Of a stretch of 64,000 bases of DNA, positions 12,975-63,297 are shown one piece after another (the first letter of the stretch is position 1; every line of letters begins with the position of its first letter). The position numbers were made by a program, and so were the translations under genes. Source of the DNA: Candidatus Micrarchaeota archaeon. Its GTDB lineage: Archaea; Micrarchaeota; Micrarchaeia; Burarchaeales; Fermentimicrarchaeaceae. A model generated the notes under the pieces. That model was not told the DNA's origin, searched no databases, and was given only the letters and a program-made list of their open reading frames with translations. The DNA lies in the NCBI GenBank assembly GCA_013425405.1, contig JACCLF010000047.1:3252-67251 (forward strand). Reading direction: 5' to 3'.

Positions 12975-13933
12975 AATATTCCGCCTACGCTCTCTACATC
13001 ACCCTCGAGACTGACGTATCCATACCCAACTGCATAATTTCTGTAAGCCATATGCCTGATTATTTCGCTTGAGTTAATCGTTAGAAGTTTACCGTCAAAT
13101 CTCTCAATTCTGTCCTTCTCAAGCGGCTCGTGGCCGTTAATCCCTATCTTACAACTCATTCTACCAAGAGCGCGCTTATAAACCGACGGACCAAAGAAAC
13201 GGCCAATCCCTCTGTTTGTGTTCTCCGCCATCCCGTCTACATTCTCTCTGCCGTCGTTCCACACAATATCCTTCTCAATCTCACTCCCTCCATACGCTAT
13301 ATTGGCCTCGTTAATTTTGTCCGATACCCCTCCATGGAAGAAGAAAATGCCATTCTCAGTCTTTGCGGCCAAGGGAAGCATCCCAAAAACCTCGAAGTAT
13401 TGCCTGTACATACCTCCATTGAAGTCATTGTATTTTTTAATGTTCTCTTCAAGGAAGCTCTTGGCTCCGGGAGAGTTCTCGGAGGATGGCTGAATCTCAT
13501 GGTCCCCCTTCAGCATTACAACATTATCACGAAAATTCCTTTTGAGCTCCAGCAACAAATTCACAACTTCCACCTGCTGCGGTCCCCTGTCTATATAATC
13601 CCCCAGAGCGACCAGAGTCAATTTTTCACCTTTCTTAACCCTTTCTACAAAATTAGTCTCCTTGAGTATCTTAACGAGGGAGCTCTCATCCCCGTGCAGG
13701 TCCCCAACAACAATTGCATTCCCTCCTTTGGGGATGTACGCCATATTGCCCGTCATCCTAAGCCCGGAATGCCGTGCCCTCTCCTCCCTCAGAATATCTT
13801 TAACAATTATCGCAGTCTCCCTTGCCCTGCCAAAATCAAGCTTATCCGCTACATCCACTATTTCATCAAGAGTTAAGCTCTTCGCTTCCTTCTCTCCTGG
13901 GAGTTTCTTAACAACCATGCTTAACTCACTCAT
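12962..13933 (-). CDS. PPP-family Ser/Thr protein phosphatase (metallophosphoesterase)
   Basis: GDLHGD, GDYIDRG and LKGDHE motifs. Start set at MSELSMVVKK. Confidence 0.8.
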   Translation of the reverse strand: MSELSMVVKKLPGEKEAKSLTLDEIVDVADKLDFGRARETAIIVKDILREERARHSGLRMTGNMAYIPKGGNAIVVGDLHGDESSLVKILKETNFVERVKKGEKLTLVALGDYIDRGPQQVEVVNLLLELKRNFRDNVVMLKGDHEIQPSSENSPGAKSFLEENIKKYNDFNGGMYRQYFEVFGMLPLAAKTENGIFFFHGGVSDKINEANIAYGGSEIEKDIVWNDGRENVDGMAENTNRGIGRFFGPSVYKRALGRMSCKIGINGHEPLEKDRIERFDGKLLTINSSEIIRHMAYRNYAVGYGYVSLEGDVESVGGIFHSI

Positions 13934-14052
13934 TTGAGATATAAAAGCATATCCAAAAATCACAATGTTCCAGCTTCAGGATGAAAGCGAATATATAACA
14001 GTATATCAAATCCAATCGGCCATTCACTGGAAAGCTACCCCCCTCCACGAGG

Positions 14053-14060
14053 TTTATAAA
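14053..14060 (+). promoter_or_regulatory. TATA box of tnpB copy 1 (near-leaderless transcript)
   Basis: TTTATAAA lies ~27 nt upstream of ATG 14087 and is conserved in copy 2. Confidence 0.5.
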
Positions 14061-14086
14061 GGAAAAAATCGACGTAAATAACGTCT

Positions 14087-15280
14087 ATGAAAAGCTATAA
14101 ATTCAGAATATACCCATCAAAGAAGCAGGAGGAGCTTCTGAACAAGCATCTCTGGCTAGCAAAGAACCTATGGAATGAGTTGCTTGGAGAGTGCAAAAAA
14201 ATTTACACAAATTTTGGCTACTTCCCGACAAAGAATACCTTACAGCTGATGGTAAAGAACTATGGTCTTTATGCTCAAACTCAGCAAGAGATTGCACATA
14301 GAGTTCACAATTCCGTAATTCGAGTTTTCAAACTGAGAAATAATCTAGTAAAATGTGGTTTTCCACGCTTCAAATCTATTGACAGAATGAAGAGTTTACA
14401 TTATCCGCAGTATGGATTTTGCTTTGACAAAAAACTCAAAGTCACTCCATTTGGAGAGATTGCAATAAAGAAGCACCGGGAGATAAAAGGTGAAATAAAG
14501 ACGCTGACTCTGAAAAGGGAGTCTTCTGGAAAGTGGTTTGCAATTTTTTGTGCTGAGACACCAAAAGAAATTCCAAAAGAAAATAATGGAGAGGCAGTTG
14601 GAATTGACCTGGGAGTGATGAGATTTGCAACCCTATCTGATGGTAAAGTGATAAAGAACCCAAGGCATCTCATGAAATATGAGAAAGAGCTTGCATTCAT
14701 CCAGAGGAAGTTCTCAAGGAAAAAGAAAAGAAGCAAAAACAGGAAAATGGCAAAGGTAAGAGTTGCAAGGTTATATGAAAAGATTTCAGATTGCAGAAGA
14801 GATTTCCTGCACAAGATTTCAACTGAATTGGTGAATGATTATTCCTTCATTGCATCAGAAAGGCTTGCCTCACAGAAGATGGCAGAACAGAATTACGGCA
14901 AGCAGATTCATGATGCTGGATGGAGTATGTTTGCAAACATGCTTGCATACAAGGCGGAAGGAGCTGGATGCAGGGTTGTATTTGTGAACCCAGAAAATAC
15001 TTCAAAAATGTGCAGCAGATGCGGAAACATCAGAAAAGACTTGAGTCTGCGGGACAGGACGTATACCTGCCCTGAATGTGGACTAACCATAGACAGGGAT
15101 TTAAATGCTGCAGTAAATATACTCAAGAGAGTTACCCCTGGGCAAGGGGGAAGTAACGCCTGCAATTCCTTGCAAAAGGAAAGAGATGTTGCAGAAAGAA
15201 GCAACGTCTGTGAAGCAGGAAGTTTGCGCCTATTAATAGGCGAAGCGTGTCACAAAGCTACATCTCCAGAATTCTCTTAA
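14087..15280 (+). CDS. tnpB: TnpB RNA-guided endonuclease (IS200/IS605 OrfB)
   Basis: MKSYKFRIYPSKKQEELLNKHLWLAKNLWN. RuvC-I AVGIDLGV, RuvC-II IASERL, zinc finger CSRCG...CPECG, RuvC-III DRDLNAAVNI. The ORF reads through the element end into host DNA. Confidence 0.9.
   Translation: MKSYKFRIYPSKKQEELLNKHLWLAKNLWNELLGECKKIYTNFGYFPTKNTLQLMVKNYGLYAQTQQEIAHRVHNSVIRVFKLRNNLVKCGFPRFKSIDRMKSLHYPQYGFCFDKKLKVTPFGEIAIKKHREIKGEIKTLTLKRESSGKWFAIFCAETPKEIPKENNGEAVGIDLGVMRFATLSDGKVIKNPRHLMKYEKELAFIQRKFSRKKKRSKNRKMAKVRVARLYEKISDCRRDFLHKISTELVNDYSFIASERLASQKMAEQNYGKQIHDAGWSMFANMLAYKAEGAGCRVVFVNPENTSKMCSRCGNIRKDLSLRDRTYTCPECGLTIDRDLNAAVNILKRVTPGQGGSNACNSLQKERDVAERSNVCEAGSLRLLIGEACHKATSPEFS
15148..15253 (+). 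ncRNA. Candidate omega-RNA (reRNA) scaffold core of TnpB copy 1
   Basis: GGGAAGTAACGCCTGCAATTCCTTGCAAAAGGAAAGAGATGTTGCA and GCAACGTCTGTGAAGCAGGAAG are nucleotide-identical to copy 2 although the protein diverges upstream. Hairpins are TTCCTT-GCAA-AAGGAA, GTTGC-loop-GCAAC and a terminal hairpin. Confidence 0.55.
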
Positions 15281-16460
15281 GTGTCTTTTCAGCGCTACCC
15301 TTCCCCTCCTCGCTTAGCAATGCATACAATGTCTCGATGTCTATGTCGGATTTGAACCCATACTGCTTCAGTTTGTTCTTGAGAATTTCTATGCCAATAT
15401 CCTTGACAGACAGTTTGCTCTCCCTCAGGCTCCTGAGCTTGTCTATTTTCTCTTTCAGGGTTTCAGATTCAAGGTCTTTGTCAATTTCCACAATTGCCCT
15501 GTCCTCAAATTCCCCAGCAATTGAGCTAACATCGAGGTTTGACTGGTTGAGGCCTTTTGCCATACTTCCCCTCAGCTTGAGCTTTATCAACGGCTTTACC
15601 TCAGTCTTATTCTCCAACAGCTTCTCAATGCTTTTCCTTGCCTTTGCGAGCACTTCCTCCAGACTCGCCTGCTTGAACTCCAGCTCCTCAAAGAAGAATG
15701 GCCTGCTCTGTATCTCGCGGAAGACTGCCTCCTTGCTCTTAGTGTCAAAAACAAAGAACCCCTTTCCCCCGACATCCTCCTTCCTCATCTGCGTCACCAC
15801 AGTGCTTCCCGGGATGATGAAGTAGGCTCCGCTGTCAAGTTTCTGAATAGTCTTTGCATGTATATGCCCGCAGAGATACAGGTCAAACCCCTTCGGAAGG
15901 TCCTCCATTCCCATCAGACTCTCACCGGGAAGGAACTCCTTCATGCTCTGGTGGAAGAGAAACACATTGAAAGCTCCGTCTACTGGTTTTGGCGAGAGCG
16001 CTTCCAGAGCACTCTTTGCGTACTCCTCAGGGATGCCGCCCATTCCCTGCAGGGCAATTCGCTCCCCATCCTTTTCAAAAACCGCCGTGGCAGCATGCAC
16101 ATTCACGAGAAACCCTGCCTTCTCAAGCAACTCAATAGGGTTGACTAACTCCTTCGTCCTTCTCTCATGTGTTCCATGGATTGCCACTACTGGAACTTCA
16201 GCATAATTCTTCCTCCCGTCCTTGCTGTCATAGCTTGCAAGCTTTGCTTCCCACTTCTTCCCAAAGGCATTTCTGAACAGCTTGAAGGACCTTGCCAGAA
16301 TCTCCTGCTTGGGAATCCTGGAATCAAATATATCACCGAGCAGCACTACCAACTCTGCCTCCTCGCATGCTCTGGAAAAAGCTCTCTCCGCCTGCTCGAA
16401 TGAATCATCCAGGAACCTTACATACCCCAGATGAAAATCGGCAAGCACCGCAATTTTCAA
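15258..16460 (-). CDS. mre11: Mre11/SbcD-like DNA repair nuclease
   Basis: Metallophosphoesterase motifs DFHLG, GDIFD, IHGTHE and CGHIH, plus a long helical C-terminus. Confidence 0.7.
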   Translation of the reverse strand: MKIAVLADFHLGYVRFLDDSFEQAERAFSRACEEAELVVLLGDIFDSRIPKQEILARSFKLFRNAFGKKWEAKLASYDSKDGRKNYAEVPVVAIHGTHERRTKELVNPIELLEKAGFLVNVHAATAVFEKDGERIALQGMGGIPEEYAKSALEALSPKPVDGAFNVFLFHQSMKEFLPGESLMGMEDLPKGFDLYLCGHIHAKTIQKLDSGAYFIIPGSTVVTQMRKEDVGGKGFFVFDTKSKEAVFREIQSRPFFFEELEFKQASLEEVLAKARKSIEKLLENKTEVKPLIKLKLRGSMAKGLNQSNLDVSSIAGEFEDRAIVEIDKDLESETLKEKIDKLRSLRESKLSVKDIGIEILKNKLKQYGFKSDIDIETLYALLSEEGKGSAEKTLKRILEM

Positions 16461-16625
16461 GCAACCACCCTCCTAGCTAAGTCGAATCCAGCGGACATAC
16501 ATAATTATTAAAAACAAAGTATAAAATCCCTTATATGACATCAAGCACAACTTTCACCCTTTTCACTGCATTAGTCATGGTCCTAGTAACAATAATATTC
16601 ATCTATTTCATTACAAGGTGAGCAG

Positions 16626-17045
16626 ATGGACTGGAGAATAGCCGCAATTGTAACGATGCTTGCACTTGGCGTCTACAACATACTTGTGCAGCAGTTCGTA
16701 AAGAAGGTTGACTGGCGAGTAATGATACCCATAGCTTTCGTTGTCTCCCTTGCGCTCCTTATATACTTCCTGACTACCTACCCATCATTCATTGATAATG
16801 TAACTTCCGGTTCAATACTCTTCTCATTCGCGCTGGCTTTCGTGTTTTGCGTGGCAACAGTATTTACCTACATAACATTCAAGGAGGGAGCCCAGCCAGG
16901 TCTTGCTGCCATGATATTCAACCTGAGCGCCATTGTCACAATTCTCATTTCAGCGTTTTTACTAAAAACAGATACCCTGGACCTTCAGAAAATCGTCGGC
17001 ATACTCTTCAGCCTGCTGGGGATGGTCCTGCTGCTCTACAGGTGA
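16626..17045 (+). CDS. Single EamA-domain (DMT superfamily) membrane protein
   Basis: 139 aa with five predicted TM helices and an EamA-like pattern. Confidence 0.55.
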   Translation: MDWRIAAIVTMLALGVYNILVQQFVKKVDWRVMIPIAFVVSLALLIYFLTTYPSFIDNVTSGSILFSFALAFVFCVATVFTYITFKEGAQPGLAAMIFNLSAIVTILISAFLLKTDTLDLQKIVGILFSLLGMVLLLYR

Positions 17046-17117
17046 CTCGTATAGATAGACAGCTGACGAATAAGTTTATAAAAATTATGTAGTATATTAT
17101 ACCACGGAGGGAGAAAA

Positions 17118-18860
17118 ATGGAAGCAGATTTTGTAAAAGTATCCAAGAAAAAGTTCAAGGGAAAGTCCAACATGGGCGCATACGAGAAGATTTACCCCAA
17201 TTTCAAGTGGGAGGATGTGCATGATGAGGTAGAATGGTTTGAGGGAGGCAAGCTGAACCAGGCTTACAACACAATGGACAAGCACAGGGACACCTGGAGG
17301 AAGAACAAAGTCGCAATGTACTGGGAGGGTGACGACGGCACTACGAAGAAATTCACTTTTCTGGAGATGTCCAACCTGTCGAACCAGTTTGCCAATGCGC
17401 TCAAGAGCCGTGGCATCAAGAAGGGGGACAGAGTATTCATCTTCCTCTCAAGAGTTCCCGAGAATTACATAAGCTTCCTCGGCATACTGAAAATGGGCGG
17501 AATTGCAGGCACTATGTTTGCAGCATTTGGCCCTGAGGCGGTAAAGGACAGGCTGGTGGACAGCGAAGCTATAGCTCTTGTGACAGATATGAAGCTCAAG
17601 CCGAGGGTTGACCAGGTAAGAAAAGACCTTCCAAATCTAAAATATGTTTTTGTTGTAGGAGGCAAGGATTTGAAGGCTGACCAGGGTGAACTCAGTTTCG
17701 ATGAGGAAATTAAGCGTGCATCACGAGATTTTGAAGCTGAAAAAATGAACCCCGAGGATGTTGCTTTCATGCAATACACCTCCGGCTCGACAGGAAAGCC
17801 CAAGGGAGTGATGCATACTCACGGAGGAATGGCCCAGCAGCACATAACCGCAAAATGGGTGCTGGATTTGAAGGATGAGGATATATACTGGTGCACCTCG
17901 GACCCTGGCTGGATAACTGGGATAATATACACGATTCTCGGCGCCTGGTCAAATGGAACTTCCCAGCTGATATTCGACGGAAGGTTTGACCCAGATAGGT
18001 GGTACTCGCTCATAGAGAAATACCAGGTTAATGTCTGGTACACCGCTCCAACTGCTCTGAGAATGCTGATGTCTTCTGGTGGAGAGGTACCGAAGAAATA
18101 CAACATGAAAAGCCTCAGGCACATATGTAGCGTTGGGGAGCCGCTCAACCCCGAGCCGATAAGGTGGGCGCGCAAGGTTTTCGGGCTTTGGGTGCACGAC
18201 ACCTGGTGGCAGACTGAAACAGGAAGCATGCTCATATGCAACTACCCCAAGATGGACATGAAAGTCGGATACATGGGCAAGCCGTTCCCGGGCATAACTG
18301 CATCAATACGCGATGACAACGGGAATGAGGTTGCACCTGGAGTAGAAGGGGACCTGTGCCTCAAACCTGGCTGGCCTTCCATGTTCACGGGAGTATGGAA
18401 AAATGAGGAGAAGTACAAGTCATACATAAAGAACGGCTGGTATATCACAGGCGACAAGGCTAAGATGGATCCCGACGGCTATTTCATATATGTCGGAAGA
18501 GGGGATGATGTCATAAAGACTGCAGGAGAGAGGGTGGGTCCGTTTGAAATAGAGAGCGTATTAGTGGAGCACCCTGCAGTTGCAGAGGCAGGTGTTATTG
18601 GCAAGCCTGACCCCGAGGGCATAAGAGGGGAGATAATAAAGGCATTCCTGGTTTTGAGGAAGGGCCACAGTGCTTCAAAGGAGCTGGAGGACGATATAAG
18701 GAAGTTCATCAAGACAAGGCTTGCAGGGCATATGTACCCCAAGGAAATCGAATTCAGGGACACCCTGCCAAGGACGCAGAGCGGAAAGATAATGAGGAGA
18801 GTCCTGAAAGCACAAGAGCTCGGACTGCCTACCGGAGACCTCTCGACAATAGAGAAATAA
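17118..18860 (+). CDS. acs: AMP-forming acetyl-/acyl-CoA synthetase
   Basis: YTSGSTGKPKGV AMP-binding motif. GDKAKMDPDGYFIYVGRGDDVIKTAGERVGPFEIE. C-terminal PRTQSGKIMRR. Confidence 0.85.
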   Translation: MEADFVKVSKKKFKGKSNMGAYEKIYPNFKWEDVHDEVEWFEGGKLNQAYNTMDKHRDTWRKNKVAMYWEGDDGTTKKFTFLEMSNLSNQFANALKSRGIKKGDRVFIFLSRVPENYISFLGILKMGGIAGTMFAAFGPEAVKDRLVDSEAIALVTDMKLKPRVDQVRKDLPNLKYVFVVGGKDLKADQGELSFDEEIKRASRDFEAEKMNPEDVAFMQYTSGSTGKPKGVMHTHGGMAQQHITAKWVLDLKDEDIYWCTSDPGWITGIIYTILGAWSNGTSQLIFDGRFDPDRWYSLIEKYQVNVWYTAPTALRMLMSSGGEVPKKYNMKSLRHICSVGEPLNPEPIRWARKVFGLWVHDTWWQTETGSMLICNYPKMDMKVGYMGKPFPGITASIRDDNGNEVAPGVEGDLCLKPGWPSMFTGVWKNEEKYKSYIKNGWYITGDKAKMDPDGYFIYVGRGDDVIKTAGERVGPFEIESVLVEHPAVAEAGVIGKPDPEGIRGEIIKAFLVLRKGHSASKELEDDIRKFIKTRLAGHMYPKEIEFRDTLPRTQSGKIMRRVLKAQELGLPTGDLSTIEK

Positions 18861-19063
18861 GCTCCTTCTTTTTTATCTTCTCTTTTTATTTCTCAGTACA
18901 TCAAAATATTTTAGCTTGACTGTTATAGTCTCGCAGAGCGAAGTTGATATCGATTGTAACCATGGTTACATACCACTAATAAAGCCCTAGTTGCTTCAGG
19001 ATTGCCAAAACAAGCTTTAATCTGCACGCTCTAAGCACGCATCCAAGATAAAGGAGTTTTCCC

Positions 19064-19687
19064 TCAGCCTGCTTTCAAATTACTGAATTCACCCTTCCTC
19101 TTCCCGCGCTCAAGGGAGTTTTTCAAATCCTGATACTCAGCTGCAAGCATTGCATTAATCGTCCTTATCCGGTCTTCCAGAACTTTTTCAGCTTTCCCAC
19201 CGAATGGAGCCCAGTCATATTCCTTAACAACCATGTCCATCATGTTCTTTATATCTTCTGGCTTGTATGCGCCCCTCCTTATTTTCAGTATTGCCTTGTC
19301 AGCTTTTATCAGATTTTTAGTAAGAATCTGTTCGGAAAATTCCTCAAAACTCCTCTTATCAGTTTCCCTCTTGACTGTCCCGCCAGTTTTCTCTATCTCT
19401 TTTCTAAGCGCCTCATTGCTCTCGCCAAGTGCCAGTGTCATTTCACTGAGCGCTCTGCTGAAAACTTTTGTTCTGTTCCAAATTGTCTCGCCTCTCGACT
19501 CAAAATGCCTATACTCCCGCGCAAGTGCAGCACTGGCTGAACCAGCAAAATCAATGAATTCCTTGTGGCTGCCGTAGTCTTTGATGAAGTTATCCATTAT
19601 GCCCCTCAGGTTCTTTTCCTCGGATTCCTTTATTCTCTTGACAAATTCATCAACTTTCCCGCTGTGCATATCATGGGCTACGGTCAT
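19064..19687 (-). CDS. Hypothetical alpha-helical protein
   Basis: 207-aa ORF with normal codon usage. No motif recognised. Confidence 0.5.
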   Translation of the reverse strand: MTVAHDMHSGKVDEFVKRIKESEEKNLRGIMDNFIKDYGSHKEFIDFAGSASAALAREYRHFESRGETIWNRTKVFSRALSEMTLALGESNEALRKEIEKTGGTVKRETDKRSFEEFSEQILTKNLIKADKAILKIRRGAYKPEDIKNMMDMVVKEYDWAPFGGKAEKVLEDRIRTINAMLAAEYQDLKNSLERGKRKGEFSNLKAG

Positions 19688-19730
19688 AAGTTACCTCTAA
19701 CAAATTTGCTCATTTCCGCCTTTTAAACAT

Positions 19731-19937
19731 TTACCTAGCCAGCCTTATATCTTCCTCCGTAACCGTCTTCCTCCCAGCGTGTTTAGCAAGCTTGACCGCC
19801 TTTGCCGCAACCTCCAGGGCATGTTCCTCAAGCATCAGGGCAAGCTCCTTAGAGGCGTCTTTGCTCACCCTTTCGGCTCCTGCCTTCCTTATGAGCTTCT
19901 CAACCCTTGCAAGCGGCAATACGGCAATAAGTTTCAT
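19731..19937 (-). CDS. Archaeal histone (HMf family)
   Basis: LPLARVEKLIRKAGAERVSKDASKELALMLEEHALEVAAKAVKLAKHAGRKTVTEEDIRLA. Confidence 0.9.
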   Translation of the reverse strand: MKLIAVLPLARVEKLIRKAGAERVSKDASKELALMLEEHALEVAAKAVKLAKHAGRKTVTEEDIRLAR

Positions 19938-19953
19938 TAACTCATATGCAATT

Positions 19954-21321
19954 CTATTTATTTATGAATTTTGAGTAGTCCACAAGCTTCCTCAATGACT
20001 TTATTGCGTATGTCGAAGATGTATAAGTAGGAACCCCGCAGTTCTCCAGTATCCTGCTGTGCACCTCCGCGTATTCCCCTCCCGGGCAGGCTACGAGTAT
20101 TGGCTTTTTCTTCAGGTTTGATGCTTCAACCAGTATGCTCAAAACCCTGGAATCAATGCTCTCTGTCTGGAAAAGGACTCCTACGAGAATTGCATCCACA
20201 TTCGGGTCGTCAAGCATGGCGTGCACCGCAACTTCAAACCTGTCAGCACCCGCATCCCCACTAAGATCCAGCGGGTTCTTGACATTAACATAGGGAGGCA
20301 CCTTCTCGCTTATGCATTTCCTGCTCCCATCGCTCAACTCAGCAAGCTTCAAACCATTCTCCTCAACGCTGTCCGTCGCGACGACTGCCAAACCGCCTCC
20401 ATTGGTTATTATCCCAACCCTATCACCGCTGCAGAACGGCTGGGACTCAAAAAGTTTTGAGAAACTGAATATCTCATCAATATTCATCGCCTCAACTGCC
20501 TTGCACTGCTTGAATACTGCCTGGTAAACTGCAGCATTCCCAGCCAACGTGCCTGTGTGGGATTTCGTCGCAGCAGCACCTCCACTTGTCTTTCCCCCTT
20601 TCAGCACAACAACAGGCTTTCTTCTTGTGACTTCCTTCAATGCTTCAAAGAACTCCCGCCCCCTTTTCACCCCTTCTATGTAAAGCACAATTATCTTGGT
20701 TCTTCCATCATCCGCCATATACCTGAGCAAATCCGTCTCATCAAGTAAAGCAGCATTGCCGTAGGAAACAAATTTGGACATTCCAAAGCCCTGCCTTGCC
20801 ATCAAATCAAGCACGGCGCCTCCAATAGCACCGCTCTGGCTTATGAAGCTCACCGCCCCGAGCTTCGGCCTCCCCATTTTGTACGTTGGTATGAAAACAC
20901 TGTCAACTCTCGTCAATAGGTTTATCACTCCCATGCAGTTTGGCCCAAGGCATGTGATATTGTATTTGAGGCATATTTCCTTGAGCTGGTTCTCAAGCTC
21001 AACATTTCCTACCTCTGAGAAGCCACCGCTTATGACTATAGCTCCCTTAACCCCTTTCTCACCGCACTCTTTCAGCGCCTCTGGGACGAGTTTCGCAGGT
21101 ATGGATATGACCGCAAGATCAACGTCATCTTTGATGTTTTTGACACTCGCGTAGCATTTCAAATCAAGTATTTCCGTGCATTTGGGGTTTATGGGGTATA
21201 TCTGACCTCTAAAACCTCCCTCAATGAAGTTCTTCAGCAGCACATGCCCAATCTTTTCAGGGTCTCTGGAAGCTCCTATTATTGCAACACTGTTTGGGTT
21301 GAAGAGCGCATCTAGATTCAA
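19954..21321 (-). CDS. acdA: ADP-forming acetyl-CoA synthetase, alpha subunit
   Basis: NPNSVAIIGASRDPEKIGH CoA-binding N-terminus followed by succinyl-CoA-ligase-like domains. Confidence 0.85.
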   Translation of the reverse strand: MNLDALFNPNSVAIIGASRDPEKIGHVLLKNFIEGGFRGQIYPINPKCTEILDLKCYASVKNIKDDVDLAVISIPAKLVPEALKECGEKGVKGAIVISGGFSEVGNVELENQLKEICLKYNITCLGPNCMGVINLLTRVDSVFIPTYKMGRPKLGAVSFISQSGAIGGAVLDLMARQGFGMSKFVSYGNAALLDETDLLRYMADDGRTKIIVLYIEGVKRGREFFEALKEVTRRKPVVVLKGGKTSGGAAATKSHTGTLAGNAAVYQAVFKQCKAVEAMNIDEIFSFSKLFESQPFCSGDRVGIITNGGGLAVVATDSVEENGLKLAELSDGSRKCISEKVPPYVNVKNPLDLSGDAGADRFEVAVHAMLDDPNVDAILVGVLFQTESIDSRVLSILVEASNLKKKPILVACPGGEYAEVHSRILENCGVPTYTSSTYAIKSLRKLVDYSKFINK

Positions 21322-21935
21322 GGCAACACCCTCACATCAACTGCGCAATATCCCTTCTCATAGGCTATGACCGGGTTTATGTCCATCTCGTTTATCTGCT
21401 CATTCTCATAGAGCAGCTTTGAGACTTTCTGGAGAACATCAGCAATTGCTTCAATGTCCACGGGCTTTCTTCCCCTCACCCCTTTGAACAGCGGGTACGC
21501 CTTAAGCTCAGTTATCATCTCCATTGCATCCTCTCTGTCTATGGGGCAAACCCTCAATGAAAAATCCTTGAAGACTTCCACAAATATCCCTCCAAGTCCG
21601 AAGAGTATGACAGGTCCGAACTGCTCATCCCTCCTCCCACCAACTATTAGTTCAGAACCTGGCTTTGCCATGCTCTGGACAAGCACCCCGTCAACCCTTG
21701 CTTTCCCGGCATTTGAAAGAATTTCTGAATAAGCCTTCCTGAGCGAATCTTCATCCTTGACATTCAGCTTAACGCATCCCTGGTCTGACTTATGGATTAT
21801 CTCATCCGATACGACCTTTAAAACAACAGGATATTTTGCAACTTTCAGGGCATCATCAACACTTCTGACAATACCGCCTTCAACAAAACTTATATCGTAT
21901 TTTTTAATTAGGGAGATGGCATCCGCGTATTTCAT
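21318..21935 (-). CDS. acdB: ADP-forming acetyl-CoA synthetase, beta (ATP-grasp) subunit
   Basis: YPVVLKVVSDEIIHKSDQGCVKLNV and GPVILFGLGGIFVEV. Overlaps acdA. Confidence 0.8.
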   Translation of the reverse strand: MKYADAISLIKKYDISFVEGGIVRSVDDALKVAKYPVVLKVVSDEIIHKSDQGCVKLNVKDEDSLRKAYSEILSNAGKARVDGVLVQSMAKPGSELIVGGRRDEQFGPVILFGLGGIFVEVFKDFSLRVCPIDREDAMEMITELKAYPLFKGVRGRKPVDIEAIADVLQKVSKLLYENEQINEMDINPVIAYEKGYCAVDVRVLP

Positions 21936-21944
21936 TTCAACTAC

Positions 21945-22661
21945 CTACTTCCTTAAAACAAGATATATTGCAGCCAATATGCATACCACAACTACCAAAG
22001 CCCCCAGGATATAAACTGCTAGCTGCATCGGGTTCTTCCTGAAATTCTCCATGTAATACTCCATCTTAGCTTTCCTCTTTGTAGCACTATCGAGCGTTAC
22101 GGGCCCTGCAGGCGGCATCTCCGGTGCAGCGGGTTCTGGCGGAGCAACCGCCTCAGCAGGAGCCTCCCCAGTGACAACTATGTGCTGCTCAGGTGTCTTC
22201 TCCATTTTTGGGGTTGCACCCACTTTCTTAAACCCATCCTCAGTTATGCTCAGGCTTATCTTGATATTCCTTATTGAATAGCTCACCAAATCCTGCTTCA
22301 CAAGCTTGTGTATGCGCAACGCAAGGTCGCCGCTCCTTATGTTGAGCCCATTCTTAATCTCGTCAGGGTCTTTGTACCCCTCAACTATCTTCCTGAGTAT
22401 TGCCAAATCCAGCTCATCAACTGCCTCCTTTGCCTTCTCATCCGCAACTTCAAGCATTCTGGCTCCAACCTGCGTGACCTCCACCTCGCTGTTTCCAAAG
22501 TGGCTTGTCTTAAAGTCTATGTAGCCCTTCTGCTTCACGGTGGCAAGGATGTTTGCAGATTCAAAAAACTGGGAGTTTATCTTAGGGCCGAACTTCTCCA
22601 TTACTGTACCTGGCTCTATCCTCTGCAGTATAACCAAGTCCGTAAACGTGAGCTCTTCCAC
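21945..22661 (-). CDS. Hypothetical protein with Pro/Ala-rich linker and C-terminal TM anchor
   Basis: 238 aa. PAEAVAPPEPAAPEMPPAGP linker, then LAVYILGALVVVVCILAAIYLVL. Confidence 0.5.
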   Translation of the reverse strand: MEELTFTDLVILQRIEPGTVMEKFGPKINSQFFESANILATVKQKGYIDFKTSHFGNSEVEVTQVGARMLEVADEKAKEAVDELDLAILRKIVEGYKDPDEIKNGLNIRSGDLALRIHKLVKQDLVSYSIRNIKISLSITEDGFKKVGATPKMEKTPEQHIVVTGEAPAEAVAPPEPAAPEMPPAGPVTLDSATKRKAKMEYYMENFRKNPMQLAVYILGALVVVVCILAAIYLVLRK

Positions 22662-22997
22662 GATAAGCTTTTTCTATTTAACTTTTAAATAGTTATTGGT
22701 CAACTACCACCTACTGAAATCAGTGGCTTGCTCAACTGACTTTCGTCGGGAGCAATAGGCTAGTCGAACTGCAGCCCATTAGCAGAGGTATAACTATAGA
22801 GGTTGTTTCCTCGAGAACTGTCTGGACGGTCCTCATCATGAGCATATCATGCAGAAAAAGATATTTAACAAGTATGAGCGGGAAATCCCACACTCTTCAG
22901 AGGTGGGATGAGAGCGAATGTATAACCTCGGAATTTTCCAGCGGATGCAGCTTCTCTCTATACCGGGTTTTCACTGGAAAGCTACCCCTCAGAGAAG

Positions 22998-23005
22998 TTT
23001 ATAAA
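22998..23005 (+). promoter_or_regulatory. TATA box of tnpB copy 2
   Basis: TTTATAAA ~27 nt upstream of ATG 23032, the same context as copy 1. Confidence 0.5.
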
Positions 23006-23031
23006 GGGAAAAACAGAAGTAAATAACGTCT

Positions 23032-24180
23032 ATGAGAGCTTACAAATTTAGGATATACCCCTCAAAGAAGCAGGAGGAGCAGATGAGACAGCACCTCTGG
23101 CTAGCAAAGAACCTCTGGAATGAGATGCTTGAGCACAGCAAGCAGACTTACAAGGATTTTGGCTACTTCCCAACAAAGAATACCCTGCAGCTCATTGTGA
23201 AGGATTATGGCCTCTATTCTCAAACACAGCAGGAGGTAGCACACAGGGTTTTCAATTCACTAATGAGGGTTTTCAAGCTGAGAAAGAAAGGAGTGGAATG
23301 TGGTTTCCCGCGCTTCAAATCAATTGACAGAATGAAGAGCTTGCATTACCCGCAGTATGAGACTGGTTTCTGGCTTGACAAGAAACTTAGAGTCACTCCT
23401 TTTGGGGAAATTGCAGTAAAGAAGCACAGGGAGATAACTGGAAAGATAAAGACGCTGACTCTGAAAAGAGAATCTTCTGGGAGGTGGTTTGCCCTATTTG
23501 CTGTTGAAACTCCGAAAGAAATCCCAAAAGAAAACAAGGGACGGGCAGTAGGGATTGACTTGGGGCTGAAAACATTTGCAACCCTCTCAAATGGCGAAAT
23601 GATAAAAAACCCAAGACACCTCATGAAGCATGAGGATAGGCTTGCCTTCATTCAGAGGAAGTTCTCAAAGAAAAAGAAAAGAAGCAAAAGCAGGAAGAGA
23701 GCAAAGGTAAGGATTGCAAGGCTTCATGAGAAAGTAGCAGACACAAGGAGAGACTTCCTGCATAAATCATCAACACATCTGGTGAATGATTATTCCTTCA
23801 TTGCATTGGAGAAACTTGCATCAAAAGAAATGTCAGAAGAGAATTATGGCAAGCAAATAAATGATGCAGGATGGAATATGTTTGCAAACATGCTTGCATA
23901 CAAGGCGGAAGGAGCTGGATGCAGAGTTGTGTTTGTAGATCCAAGGAATACAACTCAAGAGTGCAGCAACTGCCACCAGATTGTCAGGAAAGACCTTACA
24001 GAGAGGATGCATAAATGTCCTTTCTGCGGGTTGGAGTTGGATAGAGATATAAATGCTGCACGTAACATACTTACCAAAGCTACCGTCGGGCAGACGGGAA
24101 GTAACGCCTGCAATTCCTTGCAAAAGGAAAGAGATGTTGCATTGGCAACGTCTGTGAAGCAGGAAGCCCACATCCTTTAA
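23032..24180 (+). CDS. tnpB: TnpB RNA-guided endonuclease (IS200/IS605 OrfB)
   Basis: MRAYKFRIYPSKKQEEQMRQHLWLAKNLWN. AVGIDLGL, IALEKL, CSNCH...CPFCG and DRDINAARNI. Paralog of 14087..15280. Confidence 0.9.
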   Translation: MRAYKFRIYPSKKQEEQMRQHLWLAKNLWNEMLEHSKQTYKDFGYFPTKNTLQLIVKDYGLYSQTQQEVAHRVFNSLMRVFKLRKKGVECGFPRFKSIDRMKSLHYPQYETGFWLDKKLRVTPFGEIAVKKHREITGKIKTLTLKRESSGRWFALFAVETPKEIPKENKGRAVGIDLGLKTFATLSNGEMIKNPRHLMKHEDRLAFIQRKFSKKKKRSKSRKRAKVRIARLHEKVADTRRDFLHKSSTHLVNDYSFIALEKLASKEMSEENYGKQINDAGWNMFANMLAYKAEGAGCRVVFVDPRNTTQECSNCHQIVRKDLTERMHKCPFCGLELDRDINAARNILTKATVGQTGSNACNSLQKERDVALATSVKQEAHIL

Positions 24181-24197
24181 GGGTGGGAGCATGTCAC
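24097..24197 (+). ncRNA. Candidate omega-RNA scaffold core of TnpB copy 2
   Basis: Same invariant blocks and hairpins as 15148..15253. The terminal hairpin is CCCAC-A-TCC-TTTAA-GG-GTGGG. Confidence 0.55.
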
Positions 24198-24268
24198 ATA
24201 TTGTGCGGTATATCTAAATATAGACGAAGGAACTAATGAATCATACAATTTAACAGAGGTAAAAAGTG

Positions 24269-25510
24269 ATGAAGTTTAGTTTTCTTGGGGGCGCCGGCGA
24301 GGTTGGCAGGTCTGCCTACCTAATTGAGGACGAAAAAAGGCTGCTTTTCGACCATGGTATAAAGCTTCAGCAGAGGACAGAATACCCGCTGCCCTTCCAG
24401 GGTTTTATTGACTATTCAATACTCTCGCATGCGCATCTTGACCACTCCGGTTTTATACCTGCAATATACGAATACTGCTCGCCCCCGTGCATAGCAACCT
24501 ACCCAACGCAGGCGCTGAGCACACTGCTGGTGAAGGATTCCATGAAAGTCCAGAGGCTGAAGAAGCAGAAGGTGAATTTTTCAGGCAACAGCTTCAGGAA
24601 GATGCTGAGCAACTTCATACCCCTTCCTTATGGGCAGAGCTTCTCCCTTTCAGATGACATTTCGCTGACATTCACAGATGCGGGGCACATCTCAGGAGCC
24701 GCAATAAGCACACTGCAGATTGGAGACAAGAAAGTTGTCTACACTGGCGACTTCAAGCTGGGGGATACATGGATGCACAAAGGAGCTGAATGCATAGATG
24801 GATGCAACATTCTGCTCATAGAGAGCACCTACTCCCAGAGGGAGCATCCTGACAGGAAGAAGCTTGAGGAAGAGCTTTACTCAGAGGTTAACTCCGTGTT
24901 GGAGAGGGGAGGAAATGCCCTTCTACCATGTTTTGCAGTGGGAAGGAGCCAGGAGATAATCCAGATGTTGCGGTATTTTGATGGGAGCATGAAGATATTC
25001 CTTGACGGCATGGCAAAGAGTGCCTCTGAGATAATGCTGGATTACCCGAGCTACCTAAGGGATGCAAAATACCTTTCGACCTGCCTCAGCACAGCCGAGT
25101 GGGTGAACAGCCCTGGCCAAAGGAGGAAAGCCCTCTCAAAGCCGAGCGTCATAGTCTCGCCTGCAGGGATGCTTGAGGGAGGGCCGTCACTGAGCTATGC
25201 CCTTCGCTTGAATGAGGAGTCCGAAATAATACTGACAGGCTTCCAGGTGCCCGGCACAAATGGCAGCATGCTACTCGAACAGCACAAGATGAGGGTTAAC
25301 GGAATAGTGCAGGACATAAAAGTCCCTGTGAATTACTTCGACCTTAGTGCCCATGCCTCACGCTCAGATTTATTCAGGTTTGTTGATAAAGCATCTCCGG
25401 AGAAGGTATTTTGCGTGCACGGCGATACCTGCAGGGAATTTGCCGAGGAACTCCGCGCAAAAGGTTACGATGCGGTTGCTCCTGCCAATGGAGAGTCGTT
25501 CGTGGTTTAG
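24269..25510 (+). CDS. Metallo-beta-lactamase / beta-CASP ribonuclease (aCPSF2-like)
   Basis: HAHLDHSG motif, ~413 aa, no KH domains, C-terminal VHGD. Confidence 0.75.
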   Translation: MKFSFLGGAGEVGRSAYLIEDEKRLLFDHGIKLQQRTEYPLPFQGFIDYSILSHAHLDHSGFIPAIYEYCSPPCIATYPTQALSTLLVKDSMKVQRLKKQKVNFSGNSFRKMLSNFIPLPYGQSFSLSDDISLTFTDAGHISGAAISTLQIGDKKVVYTGDFKLGDTWMHKGAECIDGCNILLIESTYSQREHPDRKKLEEELYSEVNSVLERGGNALLPCFAVGRSQEIIQMLRYFDGSMKIFLDGMAKSASEIMLDYPSYLRDAKYLSTCLSTAEWVNSPGQRRKALSKPSVIVSPAGMLEGGPSLSYALRLNEESEIILTGFQVPGTNGSMLLEQHKMRVNGIVQDIKVPVNYFDLSAHASRSDLFRFVDKASPEKVFCVHGDTCREFAEELRAKGYDAVAPANGESFVV

Positions 25511-25518
25511 GTGGTCTG

Positions 25519-26667
25519 ATGGAAATATGCATGCTTGACCCGCTCTTCTACCCGTACTTTGGGGGTACCGAAAAGGTAGTTTATGAGTTCGGCAAGCGTC
25601 TTGCCAGGAAGCATGGCATAAGCATACTCACCTCCCGCATACCCGGCACATCTCCCTACGAGGAAATTGAGGGAATGAAAGTTTACAGAACGCCTTGCAT
25701 ATACCTTAAGAACCTGCCTTCATTCATGCCTCCCCCCTACACCATTTCGCCGTTCCTCATGAGAGACCTTTTGAAGAGGTCTGAAGCCGATATATTCCAC
25801 ATCCACTGCAGGTATTTCTACTACTTGGAAACTCTAATCCCCATAAAATATATCATGAAGAAGAAACTGATGCTCACGCTCCACAATGCCAAGCCTGAAG
25901 GCATATCATTCATGACTGACAAATCCGCTGCGCTTTACGACATGGTTTGGGGTTACAGGATAATGGAAAACTGCAGCAGAATAGCTGCGGTGAGCAGATA
26001 CACCAAGGAGGTGACAGTCCCCGGCTACCTGCAGAACAACGCGGAAGTGGTATACAACGGAGTTGATGAGAAACGCTTCAAACCAAGGAAGGACAACTCA
26101 GTGAGGGAAAAATTCGGCATTGGAGAAGGACCGCTCCTGCTGACCAATGGAAGGCTGGTGACGCAGAAAGGCATGTACTACCTCATTGAGGCATTCTACA
26201 TGCTCAAGAAATACTTCAAGGATGCAAAGCTGATAATAATAGGGAAAGGGCCTCTGAAAGATGAGCTGGCCAGCCAGTGCTTCAGGCTTGGTGTGCAGGA
26301 TTCTGTAAGCTTTGCGACCGGCATACCTGAAGAGGAGCTTCCGCTCTATTACAATGCCGCTACCCTCTTCGTCCTGCCGACACTTTGGGAGCCTTCTGCA
26401 GTTGTGCTGTATGAGGCTCTTGCTTCAGGCAAGGCAATAGTCACCACAAGGGTTGGAGGGAACCCAGAGATAGTGAGCGGCAATTGCGGAGTGCTGGTTC
26501 CACCGCGCAATCCGAAAGAGCTCTGCGACAAGATTAAGCTTCTGCTTGAGGATGACGGGCTCAGGAAGAGAATGGAGAAAAATTCCAGGGAGCGGGCTGT
26601 TGATAATTTCACATGGGATATTGCCGCTAAGAGGTACGAGGGTATATACAAGAGAGTCCTCTCTTAA
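25519..26667 (+). CDS. Glycosyltransferase family 4
   Basis: EPSAVVLYEALASGKAIVTTRVGGNPEIV (EX7E region). Start at MEICMLDPLFYPYFGG, because the longer track ORF overlaps the previous gene. Confidence 0.8.
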   Translation: MEICMLDPLFYPYFGGTEKVVYEFGKRLARKHGISILTSRIPGTSPYEEIEGMKVYRTPCIYLKNLPSFMPPPYTISPFLMRDLLKRSEADIFHIHCRYFYYLETLIPIKYIMKKKLMLTLHNAKPEGISFMTDKSAALYDMVWGYRIMENCSRIAAVSRYTKEVTVPGYLQNNAEVVYNGVDEKRFKPRKDNSVREKFGIGEGPLLLTNGRLVTQKGMYYLIEAFYMLKKYFKDAKLIIIGKGPLKDELASQCFRLGVQDSVSFATGIPEEELPLYYNAATLFVLPTLWEPSAVVLYEALASGKAIVTTRVGGNPEIVSGNCGVLVPPRNPKELCDKIKLLLEDDGLRKRMEKNSRERAVDNFTWDIAAKRYEGIYKRVLS

Positions 26668-26715
26668 CAAGGTGAGCGGGAAACCCCACATCCTTTAGGG
26701 GTGGGAGCATGTCAC
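26664..26715 (+). repeat. Solo IS605-end-derived hairpin element (PATE/REP-like)
   Basis: TTAACAAGGTGAGCGGGAAACCCCACATCCTTTAGGGGTGGGAGCATGTCAC. The 5' arm matches the IS copy-2 left end and the 3' arm matches its right end. It fills the whole gap between two convergent stop codons. Confidence 0.8.
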
Positions 26716-27414
26716 CTATTTATAGAATTTGTACTCTTCGGATGTGCCTTTCCTCAGTATGTACAAATCAATATACGCCCTCCAGTAGTGCAGCGTCTCT
26801 CTCAAATAACCAGCCTTGTCAAACCTTCTGGTTGATGTGACAACAACAAGAGAGGGGTCGAAAACCACCTTGCCGAGCTTCTTGATTCTGTTGGGCAGCT
26901 CATTGTCGTCCAATGTCCTTATTTTCTCATCATACCCGCCGGCTTTCTCGTACGCATCCCTCCTGAAAGATGAATTGGAACCCTGGAAAGCTACGAACCC
27001 AAGCAGCTTGGCAGACCTCGGGAAGTAGTTTGTTGTGACCTTAAAGATAAGCCTGTGCTTGAGCTTGTTCTCATCAGGCGCTATAGGGCCTCCCACGGCA
27101 ACAACATCCTTATCCTCAAAATGCTTCGCTATTTTCTCCAGCCAGTCTGAAGGATATGCGGAATCGCCGTCGGTGCATACTATGATGTCACCTTTAGATT
27201 CCCTCACCCCGCGGTTTCTTGCAAGAGGGACACCCCTCCTCGGCTCGTAGATTACCCTGCCCTTATACTTCTTCACTATTCTCACAGTCCCGTCAGTGCT
27301 TCCCGAGTCCACAACAACTACCTCAAAATCCTTGAACCTCTGCTTGCTGAGCGACTCCATGCATCTCTTGATTACTTTCCCCTCATTTAGGGTTGGAATT
27401 ATCACAGATATCAT
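26716..27414 (-). CDS. Glycosyltransferase family 2
   Basis: MISVIIPTLNEGKVIKRCMESL...VVVVDSGSTDGT, then a DGD motif. Confidence 0.85.
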   Translation of the reverse strand: MISVIIPTLNEGKVIKRCMESLSKQRFKDFEVVVVDSGSTDGTVRIVKKYKGRVIYEPRRGVPLARNRGVRESKGDIIVCTDGDSAYPSDWLEKIAKHFEDKDVVAVGGPIAPDENKLKHRLIFKVTTNYFPRSAKLLGFVAFQGSNSSFRRDAYEKAGGYDEKIRTLDDNELPNRIKKLGKVVFDPSLVVVTSTRRFDKAGYLRETLHYWRAYIDLYILRKGTSEEYKFYK

Positions 27415-54357: not shown

Positions 54358-55104
54358 ATGCAATTCATCGACTCGCACTGCCATCTTGATGCATTCAAGA
54401 ACTATGATGAGGTCGTCTCCCGGGCATTGAAATCTGGGGTTAAAGCAATTATCACCTCGGGCTGCTCTGTCAATTCCAAAAACAAAACCATTGAGATAGC
54501 CCAGAAATACCCCTCCTGCGTCTTCCCTGTTATTGGAGTAGCACCTCAGGAAGCAATGAGCATGAACAGTTTTGACTCTGAGCTGTCGTTTCTCAGGGAT
54601 AATAAACTCAAGGTAATAGGCGTTGGGGAGGTTGGTTTGGATTTCCACTGGGCCAAGTCACCTGAAGAAGTATCAAAACAGCGCGAGTGCTTCGAGCTAT
54701 TCCTCGACTACTCGATTTCAGAGAAGCTTCCCGTAGTGGTCCATTCCCGGGATGCAGAGAAGGATGTGCTTGATATCCTCATGAAGAAAGGCGCGGAGAG
54801 AGTCCTGCTGCACTGCTTCTCTGGGCAGCTCTCCATTGCTGAGAGCGCTGCAGAGCACGGCTTCCTGATATCAATACCGCCTGTGCCATCAAGGACAAGG
54901 GAAAAGGTAATTAAGCACATACCACTTGAAAACTTATTGCTGGAAACCGATGCTCCCTACCTGGGAAAAGAGCCTTCTGACGTTGACGACTCAGCCCAGC
55001 TTGTGGCGAGCATTAAGGAGCTGGAGGTGGAGGAGGTTTCCAAAGCGACTACAAAGAGCTGTATGGCTCTGTTCAACATGAGGGGTTTGAATGGCGGTGA
55101 TTGA
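54358..55104 (+). CDS. tatD: TatD-family metal-dependent hydrolase
   Basis: MQFIDSHCHLD, GEVGLDFHW, VVHSRDA and LLETDAPYL. Confidence 0.9.
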   Translation: MQFIDSHCHLDAFKNYDEVVSRALKSGVKAIITSGCSVNSKNKTIEIAQKYPSCVFPVIGVAPQEAMSMNSFDSELSFLRDNKLKVIGVGEVGLDFHWAKSPEEVSKQRECFELFLDYSISEKLPVVVHSRDAEKDVLDILMKKGAERVLLHCFSGQLSIAESAAEHGFLISIPPVPSRTREKVIKHIPLENLLLETDAPYLGKEPSDVDDSAQLVASIKELEVEEVSKATTKSCMALFNMRGLNGGD

Positions 55105-55549: not shown

Positions 55550-55605
55550 GAAAGGTTTATAAACTTCGGGAGGGATACGTATTCATTGTTTTTTAGAGGT
55601 GAACT

Positions 55606-55830
55606 ATGACAGAGAAGAGACCTTTTGACATTCTGAATGGAGCTCTTGGAGGCGCCGTGCTTCTGAAGCTCAAGGACGGAGTTGAGGTAAGGGGCACCAT
55701 GGCATCGTATGATGTGCACATGAACATTGTGCTCGAGAACTCCGAGCAGCTTGAAAACGGGGAAGTGAAGAGGAAGCTCGGCACAATGCTGGTTAGGGGA
55801 GACAACATAGTGTTCATATCCCCTTCCTGA
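55606..55830 (+). CDS. Sm-like archaeal protein (LSm)
   Basis: LLKLKDGVEVRGTMASYDVHMNIVLEN...LVRGDNIVFI (Sm1/Sm2 motifs). Confidence 0.9.
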   Translation: MTEKRPFDILNGALGGAVLLKLKDGVEVRGTMASYDVHMNIVLENSEQLENGEVKRKLGTMLVRGDNIVFISPS

Positions 55831-55881
55831 AAAACCACCAAGACTACTCGTGTTAGTTCTATCTGCATACTGTAAAATAGT

Positions 55882-59951: not shown

Positions 59952-59960
59952 AAGAAATAG

Positions 59961-63285: not shown

Positions 63286-63297
63286 AACATCACCACT

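Follow-up and report, generated by a model that had tools for sequence, protein, structure and literature searches.

Four short hairpin elements, which we term solos, and two longer insertion sequence (IS) copies are present in the DNA analyzed here, a 64-kb (64,000 nucleotides) stretch from Candidatus Micrarchaeota that we call the window. The flanking proteins encoded in the window have 80–90% identical orthologues that are annotated as Micrarchaeota, and the window also carries an intron-containing tRNA. Each solo begins after a TTAA or TTAG target and consists of a 17–18-nt leader ending in GAAAY, a hairpin, and a 10-nt tail of the form AG(C/A/T)ATGTCA(C/G). The hairpin stem has an outer part of 5 bp (CCCAC/GTGGG) and a variable inner part of 3 bp, with a single bulged base, and is capped by a TTYA loop. 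The same structure is found in all solos and at both the left end (LE) and the right end (RE) of one of the IS copies (IS copy 2).

Solo 1 (plus strand) occupies positions 26668–26715 (48 nt), with its TTAA target at 26664–26667. Its 17-nt LE leader carries the guide AAAC and is followed by the hairpin (26685–26705) and the 10-nt RE tail AGCATGTCAC. Upstream is a GT4/GT1 glycosyltransferase gene (ORF 25411–26667), whose stop codon is the TAA of the target. Solo 2 lies on the minus strand at 55882–55929 (48 nt), with its TTAA target at 55930–55933 and its hairpin at 55892–55912. The inner stem of this hairpin is a hybrid (ATGC..GGG) with a G·G mismatch. Here also the TAA of the target is a stop codon, in this case that of an ACT-domain gene (55930–56379, minus strand). 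Solo 3 (plus strand, 59966–60014, 49 nt; target TTAG at 59962–59965) has the guide AAAC, the LE-type loop ACGCTTTAGCG, and the RE tail AGCATGTCAC. Solo 4 (plus strand, 63732–63780, 49 nt; target TTAG at 63728–63731) likewise has the guide AAAC. Its loop, GCTCTTCAGAG, resembles that of the IS copy 2 LE, and its tail, AGTATGTCAG, is like the RE of an IS in the related locus L123. All four copies were found at the positions given in an earlier note on this DNA, and their boundaries were refined by using empty sites in relatives, which define both ends of solos 1 and 2. Three of the four directly follow a gene in the sense orientation, and two of these start at its stop codon. Pairwise identity among the window solos is 75–92%.

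A chance origin of the four solos was rejected from pattern counts. A 41-nt degenerate pattern that includes both arms, with up to three mismatches, matches the window exactly four times and has zero matches in 100 shuffles. Similarly, the hairpin core CCCAC-N6–12-GTGGG is present six times compared with 0.2 expected occurrences, and these six are the four solos plus both ends of IS copy 2. Rfam searches, run on the whole window at the gathering threshold and on positions 13500–27000 and 63200–64000 at an E-value threshold, assigned no family to the solos, to the IS ends, or to the conserved noncoding stretch.

IS copy 2 (22869–24197, 1329 bp, plus strand) is an IS200/IS605 element of the IS1341 (tnpB-only) type. 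It follows a TTAA target at 22865–22868 and contains an LE hairpin (22887–22907), tnpB (23032–24180), and an RE in which the guide GAAG and a hairpin (24167–24187) precede the cleavage tetranucleotide TCAC (24194–24197). An IS from Micrarchaeota Sv174 (L023) shares 87.5% identity with this element. The corresponding site is empty in locus L247, where it reads CTATTAA/ATATTGTGCAG (the slash marks the insertion point), indicating that insertion occurred directly after TTAA. IS copy 1 (13912–15253, plus strand, with the left boundary uncertain within 13912–13980) is a second tnpB-only element with a tnpB ORF at 14087–15280. The two copies are 74–80% identical over homologous blocks, and both match the Pfam families OrfB_IS605, Cas12f1-like_TNB, and HTH_OrfB. 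The RE of IS copy 1 has the geometry of that of copy 2, with a different hairpin (GCGCCTATTAATAGGCG) and a TCAC end at 15253, whereas its LE has decayed and the LE hairpin is unrecognizable.

The 5′ arm of the solos matches the LE of IS copy 2 (TTAA/CAAGTATGAGCGGGAAAT-CCCAC), and the 3′ arm and tail, GTGGGAGCATGTCAC, are identical to its RE. With the leader corresponding to one end of the element and the tail to the other, the solos are chimeras of the LE and RE arms of a tnpB-only IS, as the earlier note had proposed. IS copy 1, with its different RE hairpin and unrecognizable LE hairpin, is not their parent. The absence of a TnpA or RAYT-like Y1 gene from the window, which had also been claimed, was borne out by searches of the six-frame translation. 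Neither tblastn with two TnpA probes nor an HMM made from nine TnpA sequences revealed a Y1 transposase in the 64-kb window (best E values 0.5–0.9).

To compare orthologous intergenic regions, syntenic loci of relatives were fetched via the orthologues of two flanking genes. The site of solo 1 is empty in L247 and L248, where two convergent glycosyltransferase stop codons abut (TAG/CTA and TAG/TCA); the window has TTAA/48 nt/CTA at this point. Likewise, the site of solo 2 is empty in L123 and L124, which read TTAA/ACTAG compared with TTAA/48 nt/ACTAT in the window, and the element is also absent in L120–L122 and L125–L126. In L123, the intergenic region that matches the site of solo 3 carries no hairpin element, and solo 4 is absent from the same locus, which has cccccTTTG/gtgg at the matching point. 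All four window solos are lineage-specific. No target duplication is evident where the empty-site boundaries are clean, namely at solos 1 and 2 and at IS copy 2. The precisely bounded empty sites of solos 1 and 2, together with the lack of solos 3 and 4 in L123, show that the solos are insertions. The possibility that they represent ancient gene 3′ ends, which the earlier note had named as grounds for refutation, is ruled out by this comparison.

We also considered whether solos 3 and 4 bound a composite transposon. This candidate was rejected, since the intervening genes are syntenic in relatives from which these solos are missing. As a separate observation, metagenome contig L161 has two same-orientation solos 1.3 kb apart, and these flank phage-like lysis genes rather than IS cargo.

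The arrangement of the ends can be compared with that of IS608, where each hairpin foot is preceded on its 5′ side by a 4-nt guide that base-pairs with the cleavage site (PMC3201880). The distances in IS608 are 19 nt at the left end and 10 nt at the right end (PMC3201880). In the elements examined here, 17–18 nt separate the target from the hairpin foot, and 10 nt lie between the foot and the end. True REs of full elements pair as GAAG-TCAC, GAAT-TCAA, and GAAC-TCAG, and left-end pairing between guide and target holds in three of the four window solos. Searching one genome per species for a left-end pattern yielded at least 119 loci. The matches listed span Micrarchaeota, Thermoplasmata, Marsarchaeota, Nanoarchaeota, Nitrososphaeria, and other groups, and they also include Geobacillus, other Bacillales, and cyanobacteria. 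Among the matches listed, 110 of 120 cases have an N in GAAAN that forms a Watson–Crick pair with the fourth base of the TTAN upstream, with all four pair types represented (A-T, 56; T-A, 29; C-G, 16; G-C, 9). Thus, the left ends and the true REs of full elements follow the published IS608 rule in the pairing of guide with cleavage site, and the spacing is also nearly equal.

Genes for the relevant transposase are found beside the same motif elsewhere. Among the matches listed, a Y1 transposase gene adjoins the LE motif in at least 14 loci, and at least five of these were confirmed as Pfam Y1_Tnp, including L029 and L092 from Micrarchaeota. The listed pairings of LE motif and Y1_Tnp gene are distributed among Micrarchaeota, Marsarchaeota, Thermoplasmata, and bacteria.

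The evidence for the hairpin is comparative. In 64 distinct hairpins from many genomes, pairing of the inner stem is observed in 155 of 192 cells, whereas 1000 shuffles give a mean of 96 and a maximum of 116. Thermodynamic folding does not separate the hairpins from shuffled sequences, since the folding energies of the solos are no better than those of shuffles (DNA z-scores from +0.03 to −1.7). Covariation of the inner 3-bp stem, which the earlier note had described for the window copies, is present in copies 1, 3, and 4 and fails in copy 2 (TGC/GGG), where the stem contains the G·G mismatch. The further proposal that selection acts on the hairpin itself in the solos is not upheld. The inner stems of the solos match differing parental LE and RE hairpins, and one of them is a mismatched hybrid, which suggests that the covariation was inherited from the IS ends. 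We therefore conclude that covariation was selected at the IS ends by TnpA recognition and was then passed on to the solos.

More can be learned about the origin of the solos from the junctions between their LE and RE portions. As a reference, we used a 277-bp PATE in Micrarchaeota Sv174 (L048), which has distinct loops at its two ends (LE, ACGC..GCG; RE, ATCC..GGG). The leader of solo 1 matches the LE leader of this PATE at 21 of 21 nt, and its loop and tail are those of the RE of the PATE, which places the crossover in the 5′ stem. Solo 3 combines an LE loop with an RE tail, as do solos in Sv174 and in Ca. Fermentimicrarchaeum, and its crossover is placed in the 3′ stem. The hybrid, mismatched loop of solo 2 points to a crossover in the loop. 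Finally, solo 4 joins an LE loop resembling that of IS copy 2 to the tail GTATGTCAG, a tail typical of a different IS subfamily seen in L123. Judged by their sequences, these differing junctions and mosaic arms indicate that the solos probably arose by several independent deletions rather than as copies of one master.

Related elements form a size series composed of 48–50-nt solos, 158–603-bp PATEs, and elements of ∼1.3–2.4 kb. When the flanks of 132 solos were compared by BLAST with all fetched loci, only same-state or empty alleles were recovered, with no site carrying a full IS (or a longer PATE) in one genome and a solo in another. Such a pair has been described in Haloquadratum walsbyi, where the 1500-bp ISHwa23 (IS1341 type) is present in one strain and a 52-bp terminal-only PATE is present at the same position in the other (PMC3119063). 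In that example, the deletion occurred at a 19-bp repeat that holds the palindrome (PMC3119063).

We consider it probable that each solo is the remnant of a tnpB-only IS200/IS605 (IS1341-type) element, that the four copies reflect four separate insertions and deletions, and that they are now inert scars. The deletion mechanism that we infer has the following steps. An IS1341-type element would insert 3′ of TTAA or TTAG on single-stranded DNA without duplicating its target. Recombination or replication slippage could then occur between the LE and RE hairpins, which constitute 22-nt direct repeats (CCCAC-N11-GTGGGA). Such an event would remove tnpB, the omega-RNA region, and one copy of the hairpin. 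The predicted product, a terminal-only PATE of 48–49 nt, consists of the LE leader (with AAAY as the TnpA guide), a single hairpin, and 10 nt of RE tail that terminate in the cleavage tetranucleotide TCAC or TCAG. This product would keep a usable left end, but the lone guide mismatches the right-end cleavage site and only a single hairpin remains, and canonical excision by TnpA should therefore fail.

The predicted immobility of the solos depends on this last step, and the mismatch on which it is based can be observed directly. Solo 4 is the only window solo in which the last base of the right end (G) is complementary to the corresponding guide base (C). For a broader sample, metagenomes were scanned with a solo-only pattern, which gave at least 120 loci; when pooled with the genome set, at least 134 nonredundant solos were available. 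Among the matches listed, the solo guide matches the left target in 94 of 118 cases (80%), whereas it matches the last base of the right end in only 16 of 134 (12%). In IS608, assembly of the transpososome needs the interaction of cleavage site and guide at both ends as well as two hairpins, one for each monomer (PMC3201880). By extension from this work, an element with one hairpin and a guide that is noncognate for its right end should not be excised by a TnpA dimer.

An alternative, which we view as possible though unlikely, is that the solos are mobile. According to this explanation, they would be minimal nonautonomous IS200/IS605 derivatives that arose by a single core deletion and are now moved by TnpA encoded elsewhere, reinserting 3′ of TTAA or TTAG. 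Several observations are consistent with such movement. All four window solos are lineage-specific and have exact IS-type boundaries, and solos exceed full IS copies among the window insertions by four to two. Among the matches listed, solo length without the target has a sharp peak at 48–50 nt in both archaea and bacteria, and identical 48–50-nt cores are found at three or more distinct metagenome loci. Micrarchaeota have TnpA genes with the same LE, no allele pair of full element and solo was found among the loci fetched, and the guide of solo 4, like that of a few others, is compatible with both ends. In Haloquadratum, moreover, the 52-bp form accounts for all of six strain-specific insertions (Dyall-Smith et al. 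2011, PMC3119063). The lineage-specific solos (4 of 6 window insertions), the repeated identical cores, and the six Haloquadratum insertions are explained equally well or better if solos transpose.

Other evidence weighs against mobility. In 118 of the 134 solos among the matches listed, and likewise in three of the four window solos, the single guide lacks complementarity to the right-end cleavage site. IS608 requires guide interactions at both ends together with two hairpins (PMC3201880). Among the matches listed, agreement between guide and left target is 80% for solos compared with 95% for full LEs (p = 0.001), suggesting that the match is decaying rather than remaining in use. In addition, the window solos are mosaics with three junction types and 75–92% identity, which is not the pattern left by copies of one master, and no TnpA is encoded in the 64-kb window. 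A bolder version of this idea is that the 48–50-nt single-hairpin form is a conserved, self-sufficient substrate that Y1 TnpA-type enzymes can still move or bind. It would then be the smallest transposable unit known, or else a TnpA decoy, that has spread, at a fixed length, across archaea and bacteria and persists by docking harmlessly on TAA and TAG stop codons. We hold this version to be improbable.

The locations of the solos relative to genes raise the question of a host function. It could be proposed that the solos have been co-opted, either as a transcribed small RNA or 3′-UTR hairpin comparable to VNG_R0052 of Halobacterium, or as a REP-like decoy that titrates TnpA. Three of the four copies are directly downstream from a gene in the sense orientation and two begin at the stop codon, and their TTYA loops match the UUCA tetraloop motif described in Halobacterium (PMC4615843). 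Furthermore, a fused LE–RE PATE of Halobacterium is transcribed, and its overexpression improved growth (PMC4615843). However, solos 1 and 2 begin at the upstream stop codon because the TTAA target itself contains TAA, and only insertions at such positions leave the gene intact. Full-length LEs are similarly enriched at stop codons. Counting TTAA- and TTAG-targeted elements among the matches listed, and taking as real only the stop codons of open frames with 60 or more codons, insertions at stop codons account for 4 of 16 solos and 9 of 55 full LEs. The pooled value (13 of 71) is compared with 5.9% of background TTAR sites (p = 2e-4). This enrichment looks like a survival filter rather than a sign of function.

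Additional features of the solos argue against co-option. Relatives lack the element at all four sites (empty sites for copies 1 and 2, absence for copies 3 and 4), hairpin stability is no better than that of shuffles, one stem (solo 2) is mismatched, and there is no Rfam match. The terminator-like role that had been suggested earlier was also rejected, since the hairpin is not followed by a T-tract. A terminator scan of positions 55000–64000, made with a tool that does not cover archaeal termination signals, called none at the three solos located there, whose tails (AGCATGTCAC) have no terminator-like T-tract. Given these characteristics, we judge co-option to be quite improbable.

A final functional proposal casts the solos as miniature guide-RNA modules from which TnpB would obtain new guides, taken from the DNA downstream from each copy. 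The 3′ arm comprises the last 15 nt of the RE, a stretch that corresponds by position to the guide-adjacent end of the omega-RNA scaffold (a position established for TnpB, PMC8612924). However, the retained RE consists only of the last hairpin plus 10 nt. The region upstream of this hairpin, which overlaps the 3′ end of tnpB and contains the omega-RNA scaffold in characterized TnpB systems, has been deleted entirely. The 158–603-bp PATEs keep more of the RE, and forms of this kind are reported to encode omega-RNAs (PMC10055086). With the scaffold known from published work on TnpB gone and no Rfam match, the suggestion of a mini guide-RNA module made in the earlier note is very hard to sustain, and we regard it as extremely unlikely.

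The interpretation that we favor, remnants of IS elements produced by core deletion, has some practical consequences. Hairpins of ∼50 nt can be used in annotation to mark former or current IS200/IS605 insertion sites, and in DPANN genomes such hairpins should not be mistaken for terminators, REPs, or novel RNA genes. A single left-end design (GAGCG-GAAAN-hairpin) recurs in organisms ranging from Geobacillus to Micrarchaeota, and the fourth base of its guide tracks TTAA, TTAG, TTAT, and TTAC targets. Single-hairpin derivatives with a fixed length of 48–50 nt are common in archaeal genomes and metagenomes, and insertions are enriched where the TAA or TAG of the target is the stop codon of a gene. 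The value of the finding would be raised if an element with one hairpin and a noncognate right-end guide can be mobilized.

Several known classes of small repeats resemble the solos to different extents. A classical MITE was rejected, since the ends (CAAGG... and ...GTCAC) form no terminal inverted repeat and no duplication is seen when filled and empty sites are compared. REPs are short single hairpins that follow a conserved tetranucleotide, are often located at gene 3′ ends, and are evolutionarily tied to Y1 HUH transposases. They are associated with a domesticated RAYT (TnpA-REP) and are not sequence-identical to resident IS ends. The solos are also short single hairpins after a conserved tetranucleotide and often lie at gene 3′ ends. 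Despite this likeness, their assignment to a REP-like family does not hold, because no RAYT or Y1 gene is present in the window and the copies are chimeras of IS ends. There is also no REPIN pattern in the window, which has four single copies in 64 kb that are 75–92% identical, none with a nearby inverted partner. By analogy only, the solos can be likened to solo LTRs, in which a single terminal repeat remains after recombination between direct terminal repeats removes the interior. Solo LTRs belong to an unrelated class, and the repeats here are 22-nt hairpins rather than long terminal repeats.

The closest relationships are with other members of the IS200/IS605 group. Like the ends of IS608 and ISGst-type elements, those examined here have subterminal imperfect hairpins, insertion 3′ of TTAN, and a 4-nt guide located 5′ of the hairpin foot (PMC3201880). 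Among the matches listed, the left end GAGCG-GAAAN-CCCAC..GTGGGATGARAGCGA is also found in Geobacillus and other Bacillales. Unlike IS608 and ISGst-type elements, the solos carry a single hairpin rather than two, and they combine a left-type guide with a right-type cleavage site. Geobacillus PATEs differ from the solos in keeping both ends and often an omega-RNA (PMC10055086).

Fused LE–RE elements, including the VNG_R0052 ncRNA, have been described in haloarchaea, where the 5′ side of an RE stem–loop with a UUCA-type tetraloop is fused to part of an LE (Gomes-Filho et al. 2015, PMC4615843). The window solos have TTTA or TTCA loops, which can be compared with this tetraloop. For VNG_R0052 of Halobacterium, both transcription and an effect on growth have been shown (PMC4615843), whereas the window solos are known from sequence alone. 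No Rfam family (e.g., HgcC) matches the window copies.

PATEs have been defined as elements without inverted terminal repeats that have one or more near-terminal palindromes related to IS605-type ends, cause no target duplication, and are not long enough to code for a transposase (PMC3119063 Table 4). The window solos have no inverted terminal repeat, a subterminal palindrome, and no duplication, which places them in the terminal-only type. The likeness to PATEs proposed in the earlier note is thus well founded: the solos are 48–49 nt long, their arms match the ends of IS copy 2, they lack a target duplication, and they are too short to encode a transposase. Novelty cannot be claimed on this basis, since 52-bp terminal-only PATEs derived from IS1341-type (TnpB-only) elements have already been described in Haloquadratum walsbyi (PMC3119063) and fused LE+RE elements are reported to be common in haloarchaea (PMC4615843).

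The 52-bp Haloquadratum PATEs are core deletions of HqIRS46 and ISHwa23 and, like the solos, are archaeal and derived from IS605-type elements, including the tnpB-only IS1341 type (PMC3119063). They share the organization of LE leader, one near-terminal palindrome, and RE tail, with the length of 52 bp counting the 4-nt target (PMC3119063). Also as observed here, they have no inverted terminal repeats, no target duplication, and strain-specific insertions, and the 19–22-bp direct repeat is the palindrome itself (PMC3119063). The present examples differ in that they are from Micrarchaeota (DPANN), have the hairpin CCCAC/GTGGG, and follow TTAA or TTAG targets. Where Haloquadratum provides an allele pair of full element and solo, the loci fetched here provide none, and the junction types were read instead by comparison with the related 277-bp PATE. 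Therefore, the window solos are further examples, in Micrarchaeota, of the known terminal-only PATEs that derive from IS1341-type IS200/IS605 elements.

The left-end design GAGCG-R-GAAAN-CCCAC..GTGGGATGARAGCGA is common to IS200/IS605 elements of bacteria and archaea, as judged from a genome scan (loci L001-L119). Among the matches listed, its hosts include Bacillales, cyanobacteria, DPANN, Thermoplasmata, and Nitrososphaeria, and at least four target classes (TTAA, TTAG, TTAT, and TTAC) are represented, with the guide base following each. An exception to this target-guide rule is the guide AAAC beside a TTAA target, where position four is mismatched (A/C). Four independent insertions of one sub-lineage share this combination: solo 1 of the window (26664-26689) and three loci of Micrarchaeota Sv174 (L026, the second solo in L016, and L048, the last being the locus of a related 277-bp PATE). 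The rule is otherwise strong.

The right end of IS copy 1, a tnpB-only element, lies at 15196-15253 (+) and keeps the flanks GGAAG...AAGCGTGTCAC with the same geometry as in IS copy 2, while an unrelated palindrome (GCGCCTATTAATAGGCG) occupies the place of the original hairpin. Its tnpB ORF runs past the element end, up to 15280, and its left-end hairpin is unrecognisable. A degenerate hairpin remnant (TTAACAGAGCGAGCGGGAAATCCCGCATCCTTTAGCGGTGGGATGAAGATGC) is present in the relative L120 (18780-18835, -). Because its 3' side is of the left-end type and lacks the right-end tail, this remnant represents another kind of truncation. Between the beta-CASP RNase gene and its upstream neighbour (22716-22864), the window has ∼140 nt more than the relative L247, and the same spot in relative L248 (9820-9960) holds a decayed IS left-end remnant in reverse orientation (..GTGAGCGGAAAATCACAC..CTGGAAAGCTACCC..). 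Together, these differences suggest a recurrent insertion site.

Directly upstream of solo 4 is a conserved non-coding stretch of ∼100 nt (63626-63727, +), whose counterpart in relative L123 (3780-3885, -) shows two compensatory changes. Its predicted fold has a long closing stem of 15 pairs with hairpins inside, and the TTAG target of solo 4 sits immediately 3′ of this stem. Since an Rfam search of 63200-64000 yielded no match to the stretch at the E-value threshold, it could represent a small RNA that lacks annotation. Solo 3 lies 10 nt downstream from the stop codon of a 621-aa cysteine-rich ORF (58086-59951, +) with no Pfam match. The ORF contains repeats of ∼150 nt (59598-59665/59748-59815), and the L123 alignment covers both ends of its region (58053-58570 and 59457-59883), leaving the middle unaligned. 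A 95-nt Rfam tRNA match at 57668-57762 (+), scoring 53.9 bits and absent from ARAGORN output, presumably contains an intron.

Two identical solos reside in the metagenome contig OJMK01000346.1 (L161, 60-1480, -), where they share the same orientation, are separated by 1.28 kb, and adjoin a lysozyme-like ORF. The pair lies within a phage-like lysis region, and therefore bacterial mobile DNA also carries the single-hairpin form.
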